Below, piece by piece: positions 3,121 to 57,740 of a DNA stretch of 64,000 nt. The position numbers and the translations under genes were made by a program. The notes beneath the pieces were generated by a model. That model saw only the letters and a program-made list of their open reading frames with translations. It was not told the origin of the DNA and searched no databases. Numbering within the stretch: position 1 is the stretch's first letter; every line of letters starts with the position of its first letter. The stretch is from Carcharhinus longimanus (taxonomy: Eukaryota): assembly GCA_030264375.1 (NCBI GenBank), contig JASCQW010000109.1, forward strand, positions 51,933,809-51,997,808, in the 5' to 3' direction.

Positions 3121-3365
3121 GATGTGGGTATGCCGGCATTGGACTGGCGTAAACACAGTAAAAAGTCTGACAACACCAGGTTTTAGTCCAACNNNNNNNN
3201 NNNNNNNNNNNNNNNNNNNNNNNNNNNNNNNNNNNNNNNNNNNNNNNNNNNNNNNNNNNNNNNNNNNNNNNNNNNNNNNNNNNNNNNNNNNNAACCCGAA
3301 AGCTTGTGAGTATATTATCAAATAAATAGGTTGGACTAAAACCTGGTGTTGTCAGACTTTTTACT
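3121..3365 (-). mobile_element. Palindromic Penelope-like non-autonomous element (family A), centre in an N gap
   Basis: Inverted arms cagtaaaaagtctgacaacaccagg / cctggtgttgtcagactttttactg. 14-bp direct repeat gcataaattgtttt at 3107-3120 and 3366-3379. Confidence 0.75.
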
Positions 3366-3379
3366 GCATAAATTGTTTT

Positions 3380-4369: not shown

Positions 4370-4593
4370 AAGAACATAGAACATAGAACACTACAGCACA
4401 AACAGGCCCTTTGGCCCACAAGTTGCGCCGATCATATGCCTACCTACTAGGCCTACCTGTAACCCTCAATCCCATTAAACCCCATGTACTCATCCAGAAG
4501 TCTCTCGAAAGACCCCAACAAGTTTGCCTCCACCACCACCGACGGCAGCCAATTCCACTCACTTACCACCCTCTGAGTGAAAAACTTACTCCT
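4370..4593 (-). mobile_element. CR1 3' tail (young subfamily, also at 6470-6720)
   Basis: Microsatellite end (agaacat)n and acagcacaaacaggccc motif. Confidence 0.85.
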
Positions 4594-6469: not shown

Positions 6470-6720
6470 ACATAGAACATAGAACACTACAGCACAAACA
6501 GGCCCTTCAGCCCACTAGTTGCGCCGATCACTTCTATAAGCCATAGGCCTATCTATAACCCCCAATCCCATTAGATCCCATATACTCAACCAGAAGTCTT
6601 TTAAAAGACCCCAGCGAGTTCGCCTCTACCACCACCGACGGCAGCCAATTCCACTCACTTACCACCCTCTGAGTGAAAAACTTACTCCTGACATCTCCTC
6701 TGTACCTACTCCTACTCTGC
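6470..6720 (-). mobile_element. CR1 3' end
   Basis: Encodes RYRGDVRSKFFTQRVVSEWNWLP and has the tail repeat. Confidence 0.85.
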
Positions 6721-8619: not shown

Positions 8620-11600
8620 CCTAATAAAGTAAACAAAATACAGATGATAGGTCAAGTGATGGATTGCAGCTGAAGCATGTGGGTTCAATGGTCAACAGTG
8701 TGATCAATGGTAACCACGTATGCACTAAGTGCCTGCAAATCAAAGATCTTTGACTATCAATTGATGAGCTTTACACACGTGTGATGCATCAGCAAAGGAA
8801 AAAGTTATCCTTTTCAGGCGACCCCTTTGGCTAGCTATTTTAGATATGGTCCATGGTTAGTGACAGGATTGTGACTATGACTGAGGTATGTATGGCAATC
8901 CAGAAAGTAGCTGGGGAAGAGCCTCAGCACTTGCAATAGTCCATCTGGTTTCCTCCCATAGTCCAAACGATGTACTGGTTAGGTACATTGGCCATGCTAA
9001 ATTCTCCTTCAGTGTACTTGAACAGGTGCCAGAATGTGGTGACTGGGGAATTTTCACAGTAACTTCATTGCAGTGTTAATGTGACTACTAAATAAACAGG
9101 TTTGAAGTTCTAACAACCTGTATGGACAAAAACAGGGACTGCAATGAGATAAACAACAAGCCATAGAACAATTTATGGTGCAGGAAGCTATTCAAGTGGT
9201 GGGGGGAGAGGGAGAGTGAAAAGGAACACACTTGTAATAGGAGACAGGATAGTACAGGGATAGCTATGTTCTCTGCAGCAGAGAACAGCATGAACAGATA
9301 CAAATGAATATAATATGATAGCTATTACAGAGACCTGGTTGCAAAGTGACCACAGTTGGGACTTGAATGTGCAAGGACATTTGACATTTCAGAAGGATGG
9401 GAAGGAAAGGAAATGATGTGGCGTGATTCTGTTCACAGAGGATGATAAATGAGTTTGAATGTGAGGATTAAATCTATCATCATTTCAGATGGAGATAAGA
9501 AACAGCAAAGGAAATAAGTCGCTGGTAGAAATGGTTCACAGGCCCTCTGACAATAGCTATACTATAGGACAGAGTATAAATCAAGAAATAATAGGAACTT
9601 GGAAGAAATTATTGTCACTGTCATGGGAGATTTTAATCTTCACATTAATTGGATGAATCAAATTGGCAAAAGTATCCAGGAGGGTGGATCCATAGAGTGC
9701 ATTTGGAACAGTTTCCTTACCTGGTCTGGCCTACATTCAGCAATGTGGTTGACTCTTAAATGCCCTCTGAAATGGCCACTCAGTTCACGGCAATTAGGGA
9801 TAGGTAATAAATGCTTGTTCAGCCAGCAACACCCACATCCCATGAACAAATGAAAAAACAAGATAGTTTGGAGCCAACCAGGAAAAAGGCGATTTTAAAC
9901 CTAGTAATGTAGAGTGAGACATGGTTAATTAATTAATGGTCTCATAGAAAAGGATCCTCTAGGCAAGACTGATCCTAACATTAAATTTTGGGGTCTGAAA
10001 GTAATGTCTTAATCTTAAGGACAGGCAATTACAAGCCCATATGAACATAGAGTTGGCTAAAATGGAATGACAGAGGGTAGACTAATTGACTTGTAGTTTC
10101 CTGCTTTCTGTTTAGAAGGTAAGATAGCAGAGAAGAAATGGCAGACGTTTGCAGAGATATTTCATAACCCTCAAAGTAGATACATTCCATTGTGAAAGGA
10201 AGAGCGACTCTTACCACAAGAATCACCATTTGTGGATGAGTATGGATGGTGTCAAATTGACAGAAAAAAACTATAATTCTGCAAATATGTACAGTAGCCC
10301 AGAAGACTGGGAGCATTTTGGAAACCAGAAAAGGATGGCTAACAAAATAAAATAAAGAGGGTGAAATTGACATACGAGAGAAACTGAGCAAGAAATATAA
10401 AAACTGACAGTAAAAGCTTCTACAGTTATGTAAAATTGAAGAGAACAGCGGAAGTAAGCATTGGTCCCTTAGAGGGTGAGACTGTGGAATTAATAATGTG
10501 AACAAGGAAATTGCAGAGATTTTGAACAAGTATTTTGCACCTATCTTTCCAGGAGAAGACAAAGAAATCATTCTAAAAATAGTGGGCGATCAAGAGGCAA
10601 AAGAGAGGGAGAAACTTAAAATATGATAACTAGAGAAAAAATATTGTGAAAAATAATGTCACTAAAAGCTGACAAACCCCCTGGACCTGATGGCCTCCAT
10701 CCTAGGGTCTTAAAGGGAATGGCTGCAAATATGGTGAATGCATTGTTGTAATCTGCCAAAATTGAATTGCAAATATAAGTACAGGCCAACTAGTCTAACC
10801 TCTATTGTAATACAAGAAAATACAAGAATAGATTATTAAAGATGTGGTAGCAGAGCAATAGGAAAACCAAAATATAATCACGGAGATACCACATGGTTTT
10901 ATGAAAAGGTAATTGAGTTTGGCGAATTTACTTAAGTTCTTTGAGGATGTAAGAAGCAGGATGAATAAAGGGGAAGCAGTAGAGGTATGATGGGCCCAAT
11001 TTTACCATTTTGATTCCAAGTGCTGGACGGACTGGAATCTGGGAGTGTTTGAGATCCAATTTTTAGACCTGTTCTCAGGTGTCCCTGTATGCCCTCTGTC
11101 TGAAAAAAATCAGCAATTCTGAATCACACTGCAGAAACATGTGGTCAAGGCTTATTGTGCCTGAAACACTGCAGTTATGATTGGTGTCTCCAACTGCACC
11201 TGCGCAGTAAGAAAAATAGAAAAACACTCCCCTGCCACATTGCTTCTGGGCTGGATAATGCCTCCCTCTGCCCCCCCCCCAGACATTGCCCCCACCCCCA
11301 CAACATAACTGATCTCTTTATCCTGCCCCCACCCCCGCCTCGCTACCCAGACTGATCGTGTCTCTCTGCCCCACTCCTCCCCCTCACTGATCACACGCAG
11401 AGTGACAGCGGACACCCCGTTCCCCATCCCCAGTGATTGCACACAGAATGGCAGCGGACCCCACCATCTGAGAGTGATCTGACCCACTCCCCCCACCACC
11501 AAAGAGCCATCTTACCCGTCTCCCCTCCCTACTATCAGACAGTCATCGGACCTACCTCCCTCCCCAATCAGAGATTCATCTGACCTGCCTCCCTCTGTCC

Positions 11601-15375: not shown

Positions 15376-16473
15376 CTCTTTCTTTCATACTTACCAGGAA
15401 TATTTAGTACCCAGTTCAGTTTAGATCTCTGTAATTGTAGTAATGTCATCTGAATTTGGCTACACATCCAGCCCCAACTCTGTTCTAGCCTTTTAAAATA
15501 CCTTCCATAATGTTTCTAATATAATATCCAAACTTGGTGTGAATGATCACACTGGTGGTTTTGCAAATGTCTCCAGTTCCTGGAAAGATCAATAAAAAGC
15601 TAGAATCTGGAAGAAATGCTGGCAGTTCTCCTTCCTCAATGCAAACTATTTTCTATTAATATTCATCAGTGGGACTTGTGGGATGTCTCATCTGCCCACG
15701 TCTAACCTTCACCCTCACCTCGCAACCCAATCCTAGTCAAACTTTGGGCCTTTGTTGCAATGGTTGTATGTGTCCAGTAGCACAGTGCTGTCGAGATAGA
15801 TACTGGTATGTGGCACCAGGGGAAAGTAGACTAGGTTAAACTAGGTATAATTTAAAGTGAAGATTAACTTTCTCACTATATTTCAGTTGTTTGGCCTTTC
15901 AACCACTTGAACGCCTGGAGTGCAGACCTGAGTTTCACTTACCTGTATTTTTAAAAAGCTTTCATGGGTTGTAGGTGTCGCTGGTAAGGCCACTATTTGT
16001 CACCCTCACTCAATGCCCTCGAGAAGGCAGTGGAGAACCACTTTGTTGAACTGCTGCAGTCCGTCTGGTGTACCTACACCCACAGTGCTGTTAAGAAGGA
16101 GATTACAGGTTTTGACCCAATGGCAGTGAAAGTCTTTATATAGGTCTTCATATACCTGCCTGATTTTAGTGGGCAAGTTATTTGCATCCAGCATTAGTTT
16201 TGTTTTATAGAATCTTACAGTGCAGAAGGCCAATTGGCCCGTTGAGTCTGCAGTGACCACAACCCCACGCACTGTACTGATCCAACCCAGTGACACAGCT
16301 GGGCTCCAGGGTCCAAAAGCATGACACTGTCCTTGAAGGCCAGCTTGACATGGCGACTGAGGGCAGACACCAGACTGTCCCAGCATCTGAAGCAGTGCAG
16401 CACTATGGCAGATGGGCTTTGCATGTTATACTCATCTCAAAGTCTCTGGTGAACTGAAAATCATCTTGTGCAT

Positions 16474-16627: not shown

Positions 16628-17109
16628 CATCTTGTGCATGTCATCCCACCAAATTTATCAATTTGGTTTGACGCCAACATAATTTCTCACTAGGGTGACA
16701 CAAGATTGCAAGGCCTGACGGGGTGCCAGCAGCAGCTGTTTTGATGAGCCTTCATGTGATGCAAATGAATGCAAATGGAACCCGTGCCATCTGCCATTGG
16801 GAAGACCAATGGCCATTGGGGGAAATGCAATCTGATTTTATATCACGGGTTTCTGATTTTTTGGCTCTCACGGATTCTCTGTGCCCATCTGTTAGCAAAC
16901 CTGCGATGGGGTAGCTAGGAGAATTCTGCCTTATTTCTCCATTCCTTCACTGCCACCTGGTCAAAAGCTGTAATCTCCTTCTTAACAGCACAATGGGTGT
17001 AGTTACACCAGATGGACTGCAACAGTTCAACAAGGTGGTTCACCACTACCTTCTTGAGGGCAATTAATGATGGATGATAAATGGTGGCCTTGCTAGCGAC
17101 ACACTTAAA

Positions 17110-17452
17110 AAACACTTAGAAACCCAACAATGCAGAAGGAGGCCATTCAGCCCATCATGTTTGCACCAGCAACAATCCCACCTTGAATTTAACCCTGTCA
17201 CCCCACATATTTACCCTCCTAACCCCTCTAACCTACACATCCTGGGATGCTAAGGGGCAATTTAACATGGTCAATCAACCTATCCCGTACATCTCTGGAC
17301 TGTGGGAGGAAATTGGAGCACTCGGAGGAAGCTCACTCAGACATGGGGAAAACGTGCAAACTCTACACAGACAGTGACCCAAGCCAGGAAGCCGACCCCA
17401 GGTCACTGGAGTTGTGAGGCAGCAGTGCTAACCTCAGTGCTAACTGTGCCAC
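17110..17452 (-). mobile_element. HE1/V-SINE-type SINE
   Basis: Reverse complement of the 7985-8298 type. Confidence 0.85.
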
Positions 17453-18645
17453 CCACAACTCATGCAAGCTTTTTAAAACTAAAGGCAAGTAAAACTCAGA
17501 TCCGCACTCCAGTTGTTCAAGTGGTTGGAAGGACAAACAACTGAAACATAGTGAGAAAGTTAACCTTCACTCTAAATCATACCTAGTGTAATGAAGTAGA
17601 TTTCTTTCAGATTCGTACTGTGTAAATTCGCAATGCTGTAGCGTCTAACTCATTCCCAGTGATGAGTGTCACTATGGTATTTCGACAATTTTAATCACAG
17701 CAACAGTGGATGGCCTTGTTGGAGATCTGACCAAGCTAGACTTTAATACTGTCAGAGTGGTTCCTCTGCAGTCAGACTCCTTTTCCGTCAATCCCTCTAG
17801 TTGTGTTTATCATTCCAACCCTTCTGCATAGATAATATGTCTAATGTACTCCACTTATTTTCTTTTGATATTATCTTCTTCTGGCCTCATTCTTCATTAG
17901 TGCTTTTCTTTGCCCAGTTTACCCTTGGGGTCATTCTTAATCACCACATTTCAAAGCTGTTGATCTTTTTTTCTTTCTCTTTCCTAAGGCTCCAAGCCTC
18001 ATATCCGTAATTCATTATTGAACAGACAGAAAGTTTTACACCACATGGATTCTTGTTTCAAGACTCAAGCTGACATTTCTTAGAATGCTACTTAATTTTG
18101 TAAAATTATTTTGGCATTTTCAATCATTCTTTAGATTTTTATATTGCTTTTGATAAGTGGGTAGTATCCCTATTGTGGTATAATGTGTTAATAGTTATGG
18201 TAATAATATAGTTATGATACTATTTCATGATGTAACAGTGACATCAGTAGTCATGTGCTAGGGAGTCTGTAGAATAGTCTGCACACAAGAGAGACGTATT
18301 TACTTAATAGCTTAGCATGTATATGTTAAAAATCAAGTCATTTTGAAATAACCTACCTGAGTCACACATGATTAGTAAAGATTAGGCCATGAGAAACCTT
18401 GAGTATATCTACCTTTGAGTCAGAAGCTCTGGGTTTGAGTCCCACCCCAGCACTTGATGGCCATGAAAGGCACATTAATGGCATGGCTACACAGGTTGAC
18501 TGCCATCCTGTAAATCCTTCCAGTATGCCTGCAGCTAGTGATAAGACTGGCAATTTCCCAGTCAGCCAGAACGTGCAGGAGGCGAAGACAAACCAGAGCA
18601 GTACCTTGCCAACCATAACTATGGCCAACATATCAAAGTCCATGG

Positions 18646-18934
18646 GCTGACGTTTCAAGTCCAGGTGACCCTACGTCACAGTCTTGACAAAGGGTCATCT
18701 GGACGCGAAACGTCAGCTCTTTTCTTTCCTTGCAGATGCTGTAAGAAGTCTCACAACACCAGGTTAAAGTCCAACAGGTTTATTTGATAGTAAATGCCAC
18801 AAGCTTTCGGAATGCTGTTCGTCAGATGAGCCTGCATCTCCACATCATGCTTATAGATGCTGCCAGACCTGTTGAGATTTTCCAGCGTTTTCTCTTTTGG
18901 TTTCAGATTCCTGCATCTGCAATAATTTGCTTTT
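18646..18934 (+). mobile_element. Penelope-like family B element containing a nested family A fragment (18742-18847)
   Basis: 16-bp TSD atatcaaagtccatgg at 18630-18645 and 18935-18950; palindromic head at 18646-18717. Confidence 0.8.
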
Positions 18935-19585: not shown

Positions 19586-22264
19586 CATTACCAAGATTGC
19601 AGATGGTGGAGAATGGAAGGCATAATTTTATCTTGGGCTGTAAATTAAACCAGATACAGTGCTTGCAGTCTCACAGCTTTCATTGGAAGTTCTTGCGTTG
19701 GCATTTTCCTCATGATTACAAAATGGATTGTTCTCGAAATAGCGGCTGCCAGTCTCACCTCACAATTTTCGTGCTCACGAAGGCTGTTATTGCACAACTT
19801 CAAAAAGTTTGGCACAGTTTTAATAGAGTAGACTCCATATTTGGTGCTAAACTTAACTCCAGCTTAATTTAGACCTCACTTCTGATTGAGTGGCTGCAAG
19901 CTCATCATTTATTTTTCAAGTGCTGAAACAGTAGAGATAATCCGTGCTGAAAATTTCTGCAGCAGTGTTTCAAATTTCACAACTGTGGGAGCATAAATAA
20001 AGCCTCTGAAAATGTAGTTTACATGTTATAACAAAAGGAACTATTCCTCTATATAAGGAAATGTATTTAATTTTATAAATAAGTTTAGAGTATCACAGTT
20101 GGCTTTTCAGAAAGTGAATTTGCAACGTGGTATTTCCCTAGAGTCTCGTGGAAGGAATGAATACAGGATACACAGTATATGAATTTAAACACAATATGGC
20201 TTTATTCATTGGATATAAAACACTTGACTGAGATTAGCTGTAGGGGACATCTGTTTCCCTGTTCCATTGCCAACTGACTGAAATGTCCTTGGATTTTCAG
20301 AAAGGGTTTTAGGCCTTCTTGTCGCTGACAACATGTATTTCCACTTTGCAGTATTTCGTGTTTTTTATTCAAGTCAACTTTTTTTAAAAAACAGAAGAGG
20401 GCAATCTTGCCAATAAAATTCAAGTCCAGAACAAGCAGGAAAACAGGAGAGTTTCAGATGTGTTTTTTTTTGGTGAGGCCACTAGTCAAATCTTTCGCAC
20501 TTTGTGCAATAAAAAAATCCCTCGATCTGATTTCCACCTATAGTGGGAGTGGGAGTGGGAGTGAAATCACCTCAAAGCCGGCTGATAGCAGCAGAGGGAA
20601 CCATTACACATGTGCAAGTCTTTGACCTCAGAGCCGCAGAGACCTGTTGGTGCCTCTGCTGCTAATAACCTGCCGGCCTCTGTTGGCCCTGCATCCTCAC
20701 CACCTCCATACTACTGCAGAGCTCAGCTGCCATTCAAAACCTCTCCCTTGCCCAGAGTAATCGCATGGTGTAGACACAAGGCTGAATGTGCCAGATAGAT
20801 ATCTGGTGCTGACAAGATTGCGATAGGCAAGAATTTGGACGCGAACCTGATTTCTCAGTTATTGCGTAATCTTACCAGCTTGCCTTGTCCATCAACCGAT
20901 GGGACGCAATGATAAGATCACCGCCAAAGTGTTTAGAATGACAGTGTCCAGTTAAATTGGCTATTCCACAGCTGGTTACACCTGCAAATGAGCTGTGAAA
21001 ACAAGCTACAACCAAAGATCAAATCTCTTTGGTTAATTAATCAAGATCAAGAAAGCATTGGCTATGAATTAAAAGGCAAATATATCTTCAAAATGTATTT
21101 GATGATCAGACTTTTGCATATCTCTTATTATTGACGATTGGGTTGTCTCCTGATCTTGTGAATACTTTGCTGAATTAATGATGTCAGTTGGCACTTGCCT
21201 GAATGATATAAAAATATTATATCTGCTACTTTACTTTGTTCTGAATTTCCATCCTGCAGTCACCTTGATCCCATTTTACTTCATCTACAACCAAGGCCTA
21301 CAATCACTAGTAAGTCACTAGCAAATTACAAGTGCATGTTTGACCCTTTGCTAGTTGGATGCTAGGCATCAGCAACTCATGACTACCAGGCTCAGCACCA
21401 CAGTTATCTGAAAGCGTATGGGTGCACTGCTATCATCCTCCTGACCAGGACATGAACATACACCACAACCTATGGCATGGAATCATAGAATTTACTGTGC
21501 AGAATAAGCCATTTGGCCGATTGAGCCTACGCCGACAACAATCCCACCCAAATCCAATCCCTGTAACCCCACATATTTACCCTCCTACTCCCCATGACAC
21601 TAACGGGAAATTGATCATGGCCAATCAATCTAACCTGCACGTCTTTGGAGTCCCACCAGTTGGAGTTGCGGAGCTTCAGCAGCAGTTGTTTAATTTTCTA
21701 CAATCAGGTCATAGTAAGCACAGCACCATGGATAATTATATTCAGGAGCAATGATTTTACAAGTAATGCCCACCCTGCTACTATACGAGATCAGTTAAGT
21801 CAATATAGATTGGAAGTCCAACTTGCGTTATTTCTGCTCTGTATAATGGTACTCTGTATAATAGTACTCAGTGAAAAAGCTCAGACAAAACTTGCATTAA
21901 TATTTTTCCTTTGGGACTGACCTTACTTTGGGTCCAATTCTTAATTTAATTTTTATTCTTTTCAAAGCACACATCTCTCTTGACCTAGCTGTGATGCAGG
22001 AGCATCTCTCTCTGCATCATTTTCCTTTTAACACGCTGAGTTCCAGATACATTCTGGTCCTCAAATCAGTCCAACAGAAACGAGACAGAGCCGGCATTAA
22101 TCTGTTAACACTGTTCATTAGGGTGAGATTTCGGTGTGGCAGATTAACAAATGTTAGCCTTGCCAGTAATGCTCACATCCCATAAAATAACAAAGTTAAC
22201 GGAATGGCAGAAGGGGGAACTGTTGTAAACAGTTATTATTCAGACTGGTAGAATGTAAACGGTA

Positions 22265-22652
22265 CAGTAAGAAGTCTCAAGACACAAAGTTAAAGTCCAA
22301 CAGATTTATTTGGTATCACAAGCTTTCGGAGCGCAGCCCCTTCATGATCTGATGAAGGCAATGTGACTTTACGAGCTTGCCTTGTCCGTCAGCTGACAGG
22401 CTGCAATGGTAAGATTGCCCCAAGTGTTTAGAATGACAGTGTCCAGTTAAATTAGCCATATCCACAGCTGGCTACACAACAGATGATCTGTGAAAACAGG
22501 CTTCAACCAACTAATCAGAAAGATCAAATCTCACCTGATGAAGAGGCAGCACTCTGAAAGCTCGCGCTATCAAATAAACTTGTTGGACTTTAACCTGGTG
22601 TTGTGAGACTCTTTACTGTCCCACCCCAGTCCAACGCCAATATCTCCACATC
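22265..22652 (+). mobile_element. Palindromic Penelope-like family A element with a captured genomic spacer, inserted in a CR1 RT fragment (22200-22940)
   Basis: Arms at 22265-22345 and 22535-22619; TSD aatgtaaa(c/t)ggta at 22252-22264 and 22653-22665. Confidence 0.85.
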
Positions 22653-25294
22653 AATGTAAATGGTAGTTCTCCCCAAGGGTCACTTCAAGGACCACTGCCC
22701 TTTCTGATCTATGTTATTGACTTTGACTTGGGTGTGCAGATGACATGAAACTTTGAAGTATTGTGAGAATAGGGATAGACTTAAAGAGAACATAGACAGG
22801 CTGGTGTGATAGGCAGATAATGCATCAGATGAAATTTAACACAGAGAAATGGAAGTGATACATTTTTGGAAGACTGAGGAGAGGGAACATAAACTAAAGA
22901 AAGAGTGAAATTCAAAAGGAATGCAGGGACAAAGAAACCTAGCTGGGAGTATACTCATTTGAGTAAAAATCAAGTTAACAAATTGACAACCCTTTAAAGA
23001 GCTATTTTAACAAAACCAAATCTTTAAAGGAAACATACCTAATTGAGACCAAAATGTTTTGAGCAGAGATGATGCACTCCAGCACACACATGCACGAGAT
23101 CTTCCGTAACCCTATCAGTAGAGATCATGTGCTCTTTCTCCGTGAACATTTGTACACAGACCTATCAAAGGATGATTTCTCTAATTCCCTGGCTTGTTCA
23201 GGAGTCAGCGACCCAACATATACAGTAAGAAAAATATATAAGATGGGGCAGCACAGTATGTAGAAGGGTGCATGAACTTGTTTGCTGGCATGACATAGTG
23301 AAGTTGGAACAGGGTGTCCATTTATAAACTTCTAAGTGCCATTTGTCATAACTTGAATGTTGTAATATCGACGATCGCCTGTAGGTCATTTGTGGAAAAG
23401 AAATACACCCTGATTAATGAAGTAGGATGGTGCATTGGACTATGTTGATCACTTTCCGAAAATATGAATTGGTGAATTAAACATTATATTCTTAAAAAGA
23501 ATATGTTTTCATTAAAAATTGCTTTTGTACAGTTATACTGACTTTTTTAGTACCTCGTGTTGTATTTGTGCACTTACTGAATAAAAGGTCATTTCGGTCT
23601 GCTTACATTTATAAATACACATAAATATTTAAATCCACCATTAGTCTTGGGGCTGAGAGAAAATCTTACATTCTCTAATTCATTTCCTTTAAAAAGGCTG
23701 CCCCGTAGTTGCATACAGGCCAGCTCGGGGGTGGGGGGGGGGGGGGGGGGTGGGGGTGGGGGGNNNNNNNNNNNNNNNNNNNNNNNNNNNNNNNNNGAGA
23801 GTGGCTGAGGGACATCATCGCCTCCACCACTCAAATAATGGAGGCGGGTGTCAACCCCCACCCACAACACAGGCATGAGGGTGACCTGATTTCCCTCCCC
23901 CCTCAGGTCCCCCACCAAGCTCTCCTCCCTCTCAGACCCCTACTCCTCCCTTATAGCCCCATTCAGGTCCCGTGCCTTGGCAATGCCAATGGTGCACTGA
24001 CCCCTGGCACTGACAATCTTGTCTGTCACCTTAGACCCTGGAAAGGAGTGAAGGAGATAGGTCCGGTGCCCGTGTGCCCTCTGCTACTGCCAGGGTGCAG
24101 AGGAAGAGTTTTCCAAGGGTCCTAGAGGTTGGGTGGTTCAAGCTGGGTACAAGAGGTTGATCTCGGCATTGTCTCCCGGGCTGGGGCTCCCATGGCTGGG
24201 TTGCCCTTTCCAGCACTGGCAGACTGAAGATCACCCCTGGCATGGTGATTTCAGGCAGCTGTGTAATCAACATCCTCATTCCTGTCTGTCAGCTGTGAAG
24301 ACTTTGAAGTGGCCTGGTCACTTTAATGTCCATCTGGCTGACTTTCAAGTCACAGCACTCCATTCTACATCAGAGATTTCATTTTCTCATTGTCAGAAGC
24401 TGCAGCTGTGAGAATATCTATTTTGAATCCTCTGACTGACAGTGATACTCACTTTCAGTGGGAGCAGGTGTTTCCCATCTATCTCCACAGTTGTTCACTC
24501 AGCCTCATTGTTTTAATATTGCATTTATCTCAAGTCTCTGAGCCTTCATAAAAAGCTCAGAGTCATTGAAACATCTTCTAACCCTTTGAAAACCTTTGTT
24601 TCCAATTCAATTACATGCCAGTCCTTTTAAACTCTCATTTGATTGACAGCCTAATGGTTTTTATTCAGCATACAGTCAGCTGTATTTATCTGTTTTTCCT
24701 TTCACAGTTGGCTGCTTCTCAGGTACCTCATTATTCCTAATTGCAATGTTTATATAAAAGAGGAACAGAGACACAGTTAGCTCTTGTGAAGTTGCTTGCA
24801 GCTTTGACCAACATTCCCAGTGTTAGAAAGGGAAGTCCGGCCATGAGACCCTCATCCTGGGGGCAAGTGGTAAGATGAAACTCTTTCACCTAGCCCCAGC
24901 CCACCCAATCCCCAGGACCCTAGGGGACCCTTCCATTGCAGCCTGGCAGCTGCAGAAGACACATGCAAACTGGCTTTACCTCTTTGATTTGTTTTTGGGG
25001 TCTTGCACACGAGCTCCATGATTGTCAGGACCTGTACTGAAGCTTACCTTGTGCCAACCTCACTGGGGAGGTGGGTGAATCGTGTGAGGGAATTGAATCA
25101 GGCTTCAGATCCCCTGATTACATTTAAAATTTGAATAATTATTGGATTCCTGGCTGTTCTGGCTGGGAGCCCAGTTGGGGTCAGCCTGGCAGGCTGGGAA
25201 CATCGTGAAAGCCATTTTTTGTCCAACACCCGATTGTCTGGGCCAATACGATCACCATCTGGAGCTAGCAGGCCGGAGATTCACCCCCATCATT

Positions 25295-55274: not shown

Positions 55275-55480
55275 CCGCAAGAAGTCTCACAACGCCAGGA
55301 TAAAGTTCAATAGGTTTATTTAGAATCACGAGCTTTCAGATCACTGCTCCTTCATCACTCACCTGATGAAGGAGCAACGTTCTGAAAGCTCGTGATTCCA
55401 AATAAAACTGTTGGACTTTAACCTGGTGTTGTGAGACTTCTTACTGTGCCTACCCCAGTCCAATGCTGGCATCTCTACAT
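55275..55480 (+). mobile_element. Palindromic Penelope-like family A element
   Basis: ~80-bp inverted arms at 55279-55357 and 55364-55443, plus the tail ccccagtccaatgctggcatctctacat. Confidence 0.8.
55359..55395 (+). ncRNA. Minimal type I hammerhead ribozyme motif
   Basis: UCAC-CUGAUGA-A-GGAGC(AAC)GUUCU-GAAA-GC-UC^GUGA. Core boxes are intact, helix I is UCAC/GUGA, helix II is 5 bp (2 G-U), and helix III is the palindrome AGCU. Confidence 0.7.
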
Positions 55481-56212
55481 TGTTGAGATAGAGGATCAGC
55501 CATGATCACGTGGAAAGGCAGAGCAGGCTCAAAAAGCCTGAATGACTCTAGCCCTGCCCCTACCTTCTATGTTTCCAACTACCTGTTCACGTCCAACGCT
55601 ACAGCACATAGCTATAATATGTTGTTAACTATTGAAATAGCATTGTTAGATCTAGTGCTGGGTATCCTTGGACGAAAACTCACAGGTGACACACATGGAT
55701 CTGTGAGGTTAGAGGCTTCATGTCAATGCCAGGTTAGGGTGTAAACAAAACAGGTACAGCATCCCTGTGGAACTAACTATGCACAGCAAACAGCTTCATG
55801 TTTAGCTGCTGCCCTCTTCTAATTATATCAATGCTACCATGAAAACAAAGCAGAACATGCTGGAGAAAATCTCAGGATGTGAATGAACCAGATGGGCTTT
55901 TCCGACAATTGTTTCATGATCATCAATAGACTCTTAATTCCAGATTTTTTTTATTGAATTCAAATTCCACCATCTGCTGTGGCGGGATTCAAACCTGTGT
56001 TCCCAGTACATTAGCTGAGTCTCTGGATTAGTAGTCCAGCAATAATACCACAAGGCCATCGCCTCCCTGTTTGAGTATCAACACTGATTCCTTCAGAGGT
56101 TAATTACAATAAGCACAGCCTAAATTCTTATACTTGCCCTGCTGCAGTCAGGTTTCACATCATCTAGCTGCAGAATCTATTATGAAAGTCAATTTAACTC
56201 CAGAAAACAAAG

Positions 56213-57740
56213 ACATAATCTGCTGTTGCTATTCAAAGTTCAAGATGCAAAGTTTCCCAGTACATTTCACCCACTGATTTGACATTTACAAGAAAACAGG
56301 AGCCACAAATTAATCTGTAATATGGAGCAGAAAGAAAGGTTAGAGAAATGCCAAACACTTATTTGCAAATGTCAACATTTTTTAGGTTAGAAATGACTTT
56401 GTTTTTTAAAAAAAGAGCAGCCTGCCAGTTGTGCATGCCTGGTAATGTGCCACCATGTACTACTTTGAAAGGAAAAGATTTGATGCAAACGAAGATTTGT
56501 TACATCTTCTCTTGCTATTACATCCTACCAATGTCAGGATCTGTTTCCTATAAACCACAGGGGGTGAGGGATGAAAGTTTGGCCCCTGCTCCCCCAGGTT
56601 AGATTATTGCAATGCATAACTCCCTTCTACATACTTTCAATTGCCACGTTGATGCACTTGTATGGAAATACATTAGATTCACTTCAATAATGCAAGTAGA
56701 ATAGTTGCTCCCTGTTATCATGATAGCATTTATGCATCTTAAGCATAGCTCATTTTTATGTGAAACATCGAATGGTGTATGTTTTCAAGGAAGGAGAGGT
56801 GTGGGGGTAGACTTGTGAGAGATGTGGGCTGAGAAATCTGGAGCTTTGGATAATGTGAAGTCCTGCCAAATTTAATGGCAGGACCTTATTTGTATCTTGC
56901 TTTCTTTGTTTCCCTGTTGGCTGCTACCCAGATTGAGAGAATAAGACACTGGCTGGCTGTTGGCTAGGAAGCAAGGTCTGTGTGTGTGTGAGAGAGAGAG
57001 AGAGAGAAAAAGAAAAAGAGGAAGACCACAGGGATGGGGTGTGGACTTCAGAGAAGAGTTATTCTAGTGATTAACTGGTCATATTTCCCCAACCTCTCTC
57101 ACACTCCCAAGTATGCCCCATGCCATGCTTAGTCCTCCTCCATACCAGCCCTCTGCAACCTTCCCCAATTAAACCGAATGTGGGCTTGTTCATGGCAGGA
57201 CTGGTCAAATTTTAAAATCTAATATTCCCCCCCTTCCCCCCACCCATCTTGGGCTTTGAAACTCCCCTTAGTTATTTCTGTAAGATTGCTGGTCTGTAAT
57301 AAGGCTTCAGAGGCAGAAGTCCCTTCACCAAAACCCTTTATTTACAATTCCAACAGCAGTGCACAGAGTGCTATCAATCAGCAGTCTACCTTCGGGAGTG
57401 CCAAAGGACCTGACACTCCCAGTTAAGTCCAAGGAAAAGGCTACCTGATGGTCCATCAATTGACTCTTTAATCAGGGGGATTCATATTCCATTAGGCCAA
57501 TCTCAATGGCCTGAATGAAGTCATTGCAGGTCATAAGCTGATCTTGAATAGATAAGAGGTGCAATGTTAAACACACTGGACAAATACAAATACATAATCT
57601 GCTGCTGCTATTCAAAGTTCAAAGTTCAAACTACAGATTTTCCTGGTACATTTTCCTCTCCTGCTTTGACATTTAAAAGAAAACAGGAGCCACAAATGAA
57701 TCTCTGATATGAAGCAGAAAGGGAAGGTTAGAGAAAATGC
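56213..57740. repeat. Diverged direct duplication of ~140 bp (56213-56351 and 57592-57740)
   Basis: acataatctgctg.tgctattcaaagttcaa ... aagaaaacaggagccacaaat.aatct ... aggttagagaaa is present in both copies. Confidence 0.9.
57295..57528 (-). mobile_element. Solo LTR (Gypsy-like)
   Basis: Ends TGTAAT...ATTGCA, exact 4-bp TSD ggtc at 57291-57294 and 57529-57532, and tgtaaataaag polyA motif on the minus strand. Confidence 0.8.

Follow-up and report, generated by a model that had tools for sequence, protein, structure and literature searches.

A templated copy of nearby DNA between the inverted arms of a putative Penelope-like terminal-repeat fragment in Carcharhinus longimanus

Penelope-like retrotransposons in their standard form are inverted, truncated copies that carry a tail of 30-40 nt (PMC8557442), and paired minimal hammerhead ribozymes are found on their opposite strands, 100-700 bp apart (PMC4209133). 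The purified Penelope-like protein of Anolis cuts and extends both strands, and the tail lies between its two start sites; measured from the core ATG, Poseidon of Anolis has its cut at 26 nt and its start of reverse transcription at 111-118 nt (PMC11167929). The completion of such inverted insertions is still treated as open (PMC11167929, PMC8557442). Here we analyse a putative Penelope-like terminal-repeat insertion near 22.3 kb in a 64,000-nt stretch of DNA from Carcharhinus longimanus (assembly GCA_030264375.1, contig JASCQW010000109.1, positions 51,933,809 to 51,997,808 of the forward strand; this whole stretch is called the window, and all positions are counted within it). The two inverted arms of this element are separated by a copy of DNA that lies 1.2 kb upstream.

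Both features have precedents: host DNA is known from between the terminal repeats of Penelope elements, and retrotransposon junctions are known to carry templated local inserts. In Adineta vaga, unrelated non-coding sequences are captured between solo pseudo-long terminal repeats (pLTRs), within target duplications, and Pen1 carries unique host spacers of 0.9-1.5 kb; the main capture case was read by its authors as mobilisation in trans (PMC3846280). No donor locus is mapped for these non-coding captures in the passages of that paper available to us, whereas the donor of the present spacer lies 1.2 kb away and the product has not moved. Among 3,598 L1 insertions, 22 are templated, as a rule from genomic stretches of less than 250 bp that lie no more than 15 bp from the site (10.1101/2024.08.27.596794); three L1 insertions whose extra DNA was templated close to the target (PMC11702581) and co-insertion of nearby pre-mRNA (PMC10191854) are also on record, and R2 cDNA (complementary DNA) ends prime on nearby DNA (PMC11371274). 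These cases concern LINE-type (long interspersed nuclear element) retrotransposons in human cells, whereas the event described here took place in the germline, has become fixed and concerns a Penelope-like fragment, with the insert at an internal inversion junction and a template 1.2-1.4 kb away. End joining by polymerase theta involves priming on very short homology, aborted extension and switching, and some of the inserted templates are more than 1 kb distant (PMC5068794). The present junction would be similar in its short-homology priming, aborted extension and template switch, but the enzyme is not identifiable from sequence. In the literature searched, which lacks most subscription journals, no paper was found in which DNA lying between inverted Penelope arms is traced to a kilobase-distant donor.

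The spacer between the arms (22369-22532, 164 bp) is a same-strand copy of the interval 20872-21027, with 132 of 153 aligned columns identical; the differences comprise 15 transitions, 6 transversions and 4 gap events. An earlier sequence-only reading had described the spacer as a diverged, same-orientation copy of about 20871-21027, and the alignment bears this out while refining the limits. The spacer has a local alignment score of 163 against the rest of the window, compared with 23-31 for all 30 of 30 shuffles, and there is no third copy in the window: once the donor is masked, the best score is 25 on the forward and 37 on the reverse strand. The donor ends 1225 bp before the target-site duplication of the element. 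The insert matches a low-copy template near the junction, as a templated (locally copied) insertion does, and a local origin of the spacer is supported. No gene was recognized at the spacer locus, judged by eye among the 26 open frames of at least 120 aa in the window. The repeats of the window have the look of cartilaginous-fish repeats. The coordinates of the locus are collected in Table 1.

Table 1. Features of the element at 22.3 kb and of its donor region, in window coordinates
Feature	Position	Strand	Basis or remark
Putative MITE-like (miniature inverted-repeat transposable element) repeat, right end inside donor	20399..20926		raised contig depth; matching ends
Donor: repeat end (to 20926) and about 100 bp of unique flank	20872..21027	+	alignment; may start near 20863
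Left target-site duplication copy, 13 bp	22252..22264	+	12/13 identical to 22653-22665
Left arm, inverted tail-less terminal-repeat fragment	22265..22347	-	64/80 against right arm; aligns with arms at 3.1, 18.7 and 55.3 kb
Duplicate of first ~14 nt of right arm, overlapping left-arm end	22345..22358	+	11/14 identical to 22531-22544
Join, probably partly donor-derived	22359..22368	+	weak alignment to 20861-20871
Spacer, templated donor copy	22369..22532	+	alignment to donor; depth of bin 22434-22524
Microhomology, 3 nt (CTC), donor end (21025-21027) and right-arm start	22530..22532	+	sequence comparison
Right arm with degenerate minimal type I hammerhead motif	22530..22619	+	motif anatomy
Hammerhead parts	helix I 22531-34, core 22535-41, helix II 22542-55, GAAA 22556-59	+	motif anatomy
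33-nt tail, on one arm only	22620..22652	+	copies at 3.1 and 55.3 kb also have a single-arm tail
Right target-site duplication copy	22653..22665	+	12/13 identical to 22252-22264

The arms that enclose the spacer (22265-22344 and 22539-22619) are identical at 64 of 80 positions and, as the sequence-only reading had noted, the target-site duplication still brackets the whole element. The locus resembles Penelope-like insertions in its inverted 5'-truncated repeat beside a direct one (an arrangement also present at 3.1 and 55.3 kb), its tail on one arm and its target duplication, and possibly in a minimal hammerhead motif (PMC8557442, PMC4209133, PMC11167929). It also resembles Poseidon of Anolis in the distances from the core ATG of the right arm, which are 26 nt to the predicted cut and 115 nt to the end of the tail (PMC11167929). 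Unlike known Penelope-like insertions, it has a local genomic copy between its arms and no attached reverse transcriptase (RT) or GIY-YIG frame; none was recognized by eye beside any family copy among the 26 frames. The inverted truncated repeat, the one-sided tail and the target duplication nevertheless suggest that the element works like a Penelope-like terminal-repeat insertion, and we treat it as a putative one. The frame opened at the core ATG stops after 23 codons, and an AATAAA lies at 22573 in the right arm. The arm pattern had 0 matches in viral and 0 in metagenome contigs, which yielded neither additional family loci nor a full-length family member.

The hammerhead motif of the right arm is degenerate: helix II has 4 bp, the predicted cut falls after 22563, and the 3' strand of helix I (22564-67) has lost its pairing. 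Rfam gave no match at gathering score in the whole window, hammerhead included, and at E (expectation value) up to 10 on 22200-22720 it returned no hammerhead but only NEAT1_1; that match was rejected as chance (E 4.6; 13.5 bits, where the cut-off is 50). A hammerhead descriptor search of the window found a single match, in the family copy at 55.3 kb and not in that at 22.3 kb. The single hammerhead arms fold no better than shuffles (z of -0.11 and 0.60), in line with expectation for dimer-type motifs.

The region is partly covered by 21 sequencing runs from at least nine organisms, and contigs from four of these runs (X17, X6, X16 and X15) were compared with the window at 80% likeness. In orthologous contigs, X17 shows no difference from the window (five contigs, among those listed), X6 is about 2.3% diverged (49/2117), X16 about 6.8% (137/2017) and X15, the most distant of the four, about 9.0% (205/2275). 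One X6 contig covers 22316-22603, and hence both junctions of the spacer, with 9 differences and no gap, and an X16 contig covers 22337-22451, including the left junction and half of the spacer. The X15 contigs enter each arm from its flank (21707-22312 and 22581-22948), arguing that the element is present in X15 as well; the X15 spacer is not among the 32 pieces listed. No empty site occurs among the 15 joints listed, and no spacer-less orthologue among the rows listed. Because the spacer is present in X6 and its left junction in X16, the copy predates the split from the organism of X16. The event is therefore old and shared by related species.

The two junctions of the spacer differ in form. 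At the right junction, the end of the donor and the start of the right arm share a microhomology. The sequence-only reading had placed a microhomology of two letters (tc) here, at hammerhead helix I; its place was correct, but its length is 3 nt (CTC), since CTCA precedes the core in the 55.3- and 18.7-kb copies too. At the left junction, a duplicate of the beginning of the right arm, which is covered by X6 and X16 contigs and which the sequence-only reading had overlooked, forms a small hairpin with the left-arm end (z = -2.75; 3 of 200 shuffles fold as well). In the short join that follows, the X16 letters at 22367-22368 raise the match to the donor, and all three X16 contigs at 22368 fit donor positions 20869-20875 better than the window letters do, so that the left limit of the copy probably lies a few bases 5' of 22369. 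No second match of 22358-22369 was found within 17-27 kb at 2 mismatches. When the insert is removed, the arm ends equal those of the spacer-less 55.3-kb copy. In other family copies the arms are joined directly or by fillers of 2-30 nt (12 rows listed), arguing that the arm-to-arm junction is made by end joining.

Templated insertion during the joining of the Penelope-like element into the chromosome has, in our judgement, slightly better than an even chance of being the correct explanation. In this model, the enzyme of the element would cut the two strands 13 bp apart, and each 3' end would be extended by reverse transcription of the terminal repeat, with one cDNA made from the tail and the other from the tail-less site. 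Because the two cDNAs would be of the same sense and unable to anneal, end joining would be required to connect them. A first join through a short overlap may have proceeded for about 14 nt before it was abandoned, and the duplicate at 22345-22358 would be its remnant. One of the 3' ends, in the simplest case that of the right cDNA at hammerhead helix I, would then find a 3-nt match on the + strand 1225 bp upstream of the target, where either resected DNA or a nascent transcript could serve as template. About 165-170 nt would be copied before this end was released and joined to the other end. The copying enzyme could be either the RT of the element or a theta-type polymerase, and the timing at insertion and the order of these steps belong to the model rather than to the observations. 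Theta inserts are typically shorter than 165 nt.

Several lines of evidence argue for capture at insertion. The insert lies exactly at the arm-to-arm junction, with arm ends otherwise as in the 55.3-kb copy, and the target duplication is intact. The pairwise divergence of spacer from donor (13.7% +/- 5.5, 21/153) is not significantly different from that of arm from arm (20% +/- 8.8, 16/80), with a Fisher p of 0.26, or 0.37 when the target duplication is included and 0.42 without CpG sites. A leave-one-out estimate of arm divergence (11/79 per arm) was left out of the dating since subfamily differences inflate the value. In addition, the Penelope-like protein extends both strands from two sites that bound the tail, and the distances found here fit this activity; templated local inserts are also known from L1 and R2 junctions.

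Other observations weigh against capture at insertion. As a point estimate the spacer is younger than the arms, and no observation links the copying to the time of insertion, there being no empty or spacer-less species among the rows listed. The 14-nt duplicate is equally expected from off-centre opening of a hairpin. Templates of L1 inserts mostly lie within 15 bp of the site, as against 1.2 kb here (10.1101/2024.08.27.596794). At least three other local two-copy duplications of 150-300 bp occur in the window without family arms, so local copying is not special to the Penelope-like family. Finally, two of the three microhomology letters in the donor, those at 21025 and 21027, are different in X15. 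These changes are read as having arisen in the X15 lineage, because just one of the nine listed differences in 20921-21027 clearly matches the spacer, but the difference remains a caveat.

The most serious alternative is that a near-perfect 80-bp palindrome, like the 55.3-kb copy, was inserted first, later broke at the centre of its cruciform or hairpin, and was then patched with nearby DNA. This is a real possibility, though one that we would sooner doubt than accept. The patched spacer would stabilise the palindrome: unspaced inverted repeats are prone to breakage and spacers suppress it (PMC3300023). The lower point estimate of spacer divergence is in the expected direction, but the difference in age is not significant. 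The left arm, the short loop and the ~10-14 nt of the opposite arm could together represent an opened hairpin, yet neither arm has lost centre sequence relative to the 55.3-kb copy. Breaks at a palindrome centre usually delete sequence. The further local duplications in the window also fit a break-and-patch event, while the persistence of copies with no spacer or almost none (at 55.3 kb and among the contig rows listed) speaks against one. The sequence-only reading had put forward both routes, a jump to local DNA during insertion and repair of a break at the palindrome centre, and both still stand. It had also suggested that comparing donor-copy with arm-arm divergence would date the capture; the comparison does give the spacer the lower value, but at p = 0.26 it leaves the two routes inseparable.

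Under either route the direction of copying is from donor to spacer. The shared stretch at 20.9 kb runs on into a repeat body that reaches 20399, whereas the stretch at 22.4 kb is only a cut piece between the arms; because the donor is continuous with the repeat and the spacer is not, the former must be the source. The sequence-only reading had argued in the same way, from a source that spans a junction between a repeat end and its flank, and the argument holds. The extent of the repeat was judged from summed contig depth, which serves as a contrast between bins only and not as copy number: the depth is 349-1248 in bins 20432-20613 and 247-620 in bin 20796-20886 (each in 4/4 runs), compared with about 4-28 in unique flanks, arguing that the repeat terminates inside the donor. 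When the spacer's version of the right end of the repeat is reverse-complemented, it agrees with the left end (20399) at 13 of 14 positions, and on this terminal match and the raised depth the repeat is a putative MITE. The reverse direction of copying, or a later gene conversion that homogenised the two stretches, is very improbable given this continuity. A 32-nt run that is identical in donor and spacer might be taken as a trace of conversion, with a chance probability of about 0.04, but the differences between donor and spacer occur on both sides of it. The run was rejected as proof of conversion, being weak evidence that was picked after inspection.

At position 20923, near the end of the repeat, X15, X16 and the spacer share one letter while the window and X6 differ, arguing that the spacer keeps an older state of the repeat end. 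Further ends like the terminal repeat at 20399 lie at 10992, 11987, 5201 and 35922; those at 10992 and 11987 are oriented towards one another and could be the two ends of a 1-kb element.

The spacer could in principle be a dispersed repeat or part of the family consensus (either of which, by the sequence-only reading's own account, would refute the capture), or the mark of a cargo-bearing subfamily that moved in as a unit. Its first ~20-55 nt do derive from the repeat end (bins 20796-20977). The 3' 100 bp, however, are at the depth of unique flank in both places and in all four runs: the 3' bin of the spacer (22434-22524) has depths of 2.5, 4.8, 3.3 and 2.7, and that of the donor (20978-21068) has 10.1, 8.4, 25.5 and 5.75, like the adjacent unique bins and leaving room for less than one extra copy. 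The arm bins, by comparison, reach 1.8e5 to 3.1e6 in the four runs, four to five orders of magnitude above unique flank. This 3' part is therefore neither a dispersed repeat nor family consensus, and it has not been amplified in any of the four runs. The spacer is also missing from the 18.7- and 55.3-kb copies, the other readable centres, and a donor only 1.2 kb away would be an extreme coincidence for a unit that arrived from elsewhere, so that this reading is scarcely tenable.

The sequence-only reading had further regarded the locus as a cargo-carrying element, and this view is not upheld. No amplified daughter copies carrying the spacer were seen, its depth being at or below that of unique flank in 4/4 runs, though rare copies may drop out of contigs and one or two stray daughters are possible; the spacer pattern had 0 matches in metagenome contigs, and the pairing of hammerhead helix I is lost. 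The locus is a one-off, inert, fixed repair scar in a dead Penelope-like fragment.

An assembly artefact is hardly conceivable, even in a repeat-rich and gappy window with 10 N runs and with one X17 contig that seems to link the left part of the spacer with the right part of the donor through the 32-nt run, since 21 sites and 4 gaps separate the donor from the spacer and X6, an independent run of another organism, bridges both junctions on one contig. The X17 contig was also considered as a rearranged allele; it is instead tentatively read as a graph chimera through the identical run. Contigs of X17 and X6 leave 21251-21432 uncovered, to which no meaning is attached.

As a single case, one old repair scar in non-coding DNA matters little. 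Its junction does record an aborted join, a 1.2-kb jump and a 3-nt re-join, and in this it offers a clue to how Penelope-like elements finish their inverted insertions. A broader idea, unlikely on present evidence, is that this very abundant family takes up local DNA regularly where its two arms meet: double priming would leave two cDNA ends that are not complementary and need end joining, so that a measurable share of copies carries patches from kilobase range. If so, thousands of datable records of how Penelope integration ends would be preserved in the genome, and the right arm and tail could pass some of the patches on in trans.

Other local duplications in the window vary in form. The intervals 56204-56348 and 57583-57736 are a direct two-copy duplication without family arms, 81% identical over 154 columns and 1.38 kb apart, and so match the spacer and donor in size and range. 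Two further pairs are inverted: 15836-16130 with 16946-17591 (~300 bp, 86-87%), in which a later multi-copy repeat at about 17103-17449 interrupts the second copy, and 1621-1866 with 2478-2749 (81% over 272 columns, several gaps, 610 bp apart). A direct 220-bp pair at 4374-4593 and 6470-6689 (88%) adjoins an assembly gap and a 54-bp tandem repeat, and probably represents two copies of a repeat.

The window contains four copies of the Penelope-like family, at 3.1, 18.7, 22.3 and 55.3 kb. The copy at 3121-3366 is in the opposite orientation and has a perfect 14-bp target duplication (14/14); its arms share private changes and are identical at 37/37 positions beside its centre, which is an assembly gap. 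The copy at 18741-18848 consists of one inverted arm with only the last part of the tail, and is flanked by a degenerate duplication of ~15 bp. The copy at 55275-55480 is a spacer-less palindrome for which no clear target duplication was found, and its right arm has the best hammerhead motif in the window, with a 5-bp helix II and a helix I that can pair. Directly before the 18.7-kb copy, at 18646-18717, lies a 33-bp hairpin (85% complementary, 6-nt loop) that is weakly hammerhead-like on both strands and belongs to another family.

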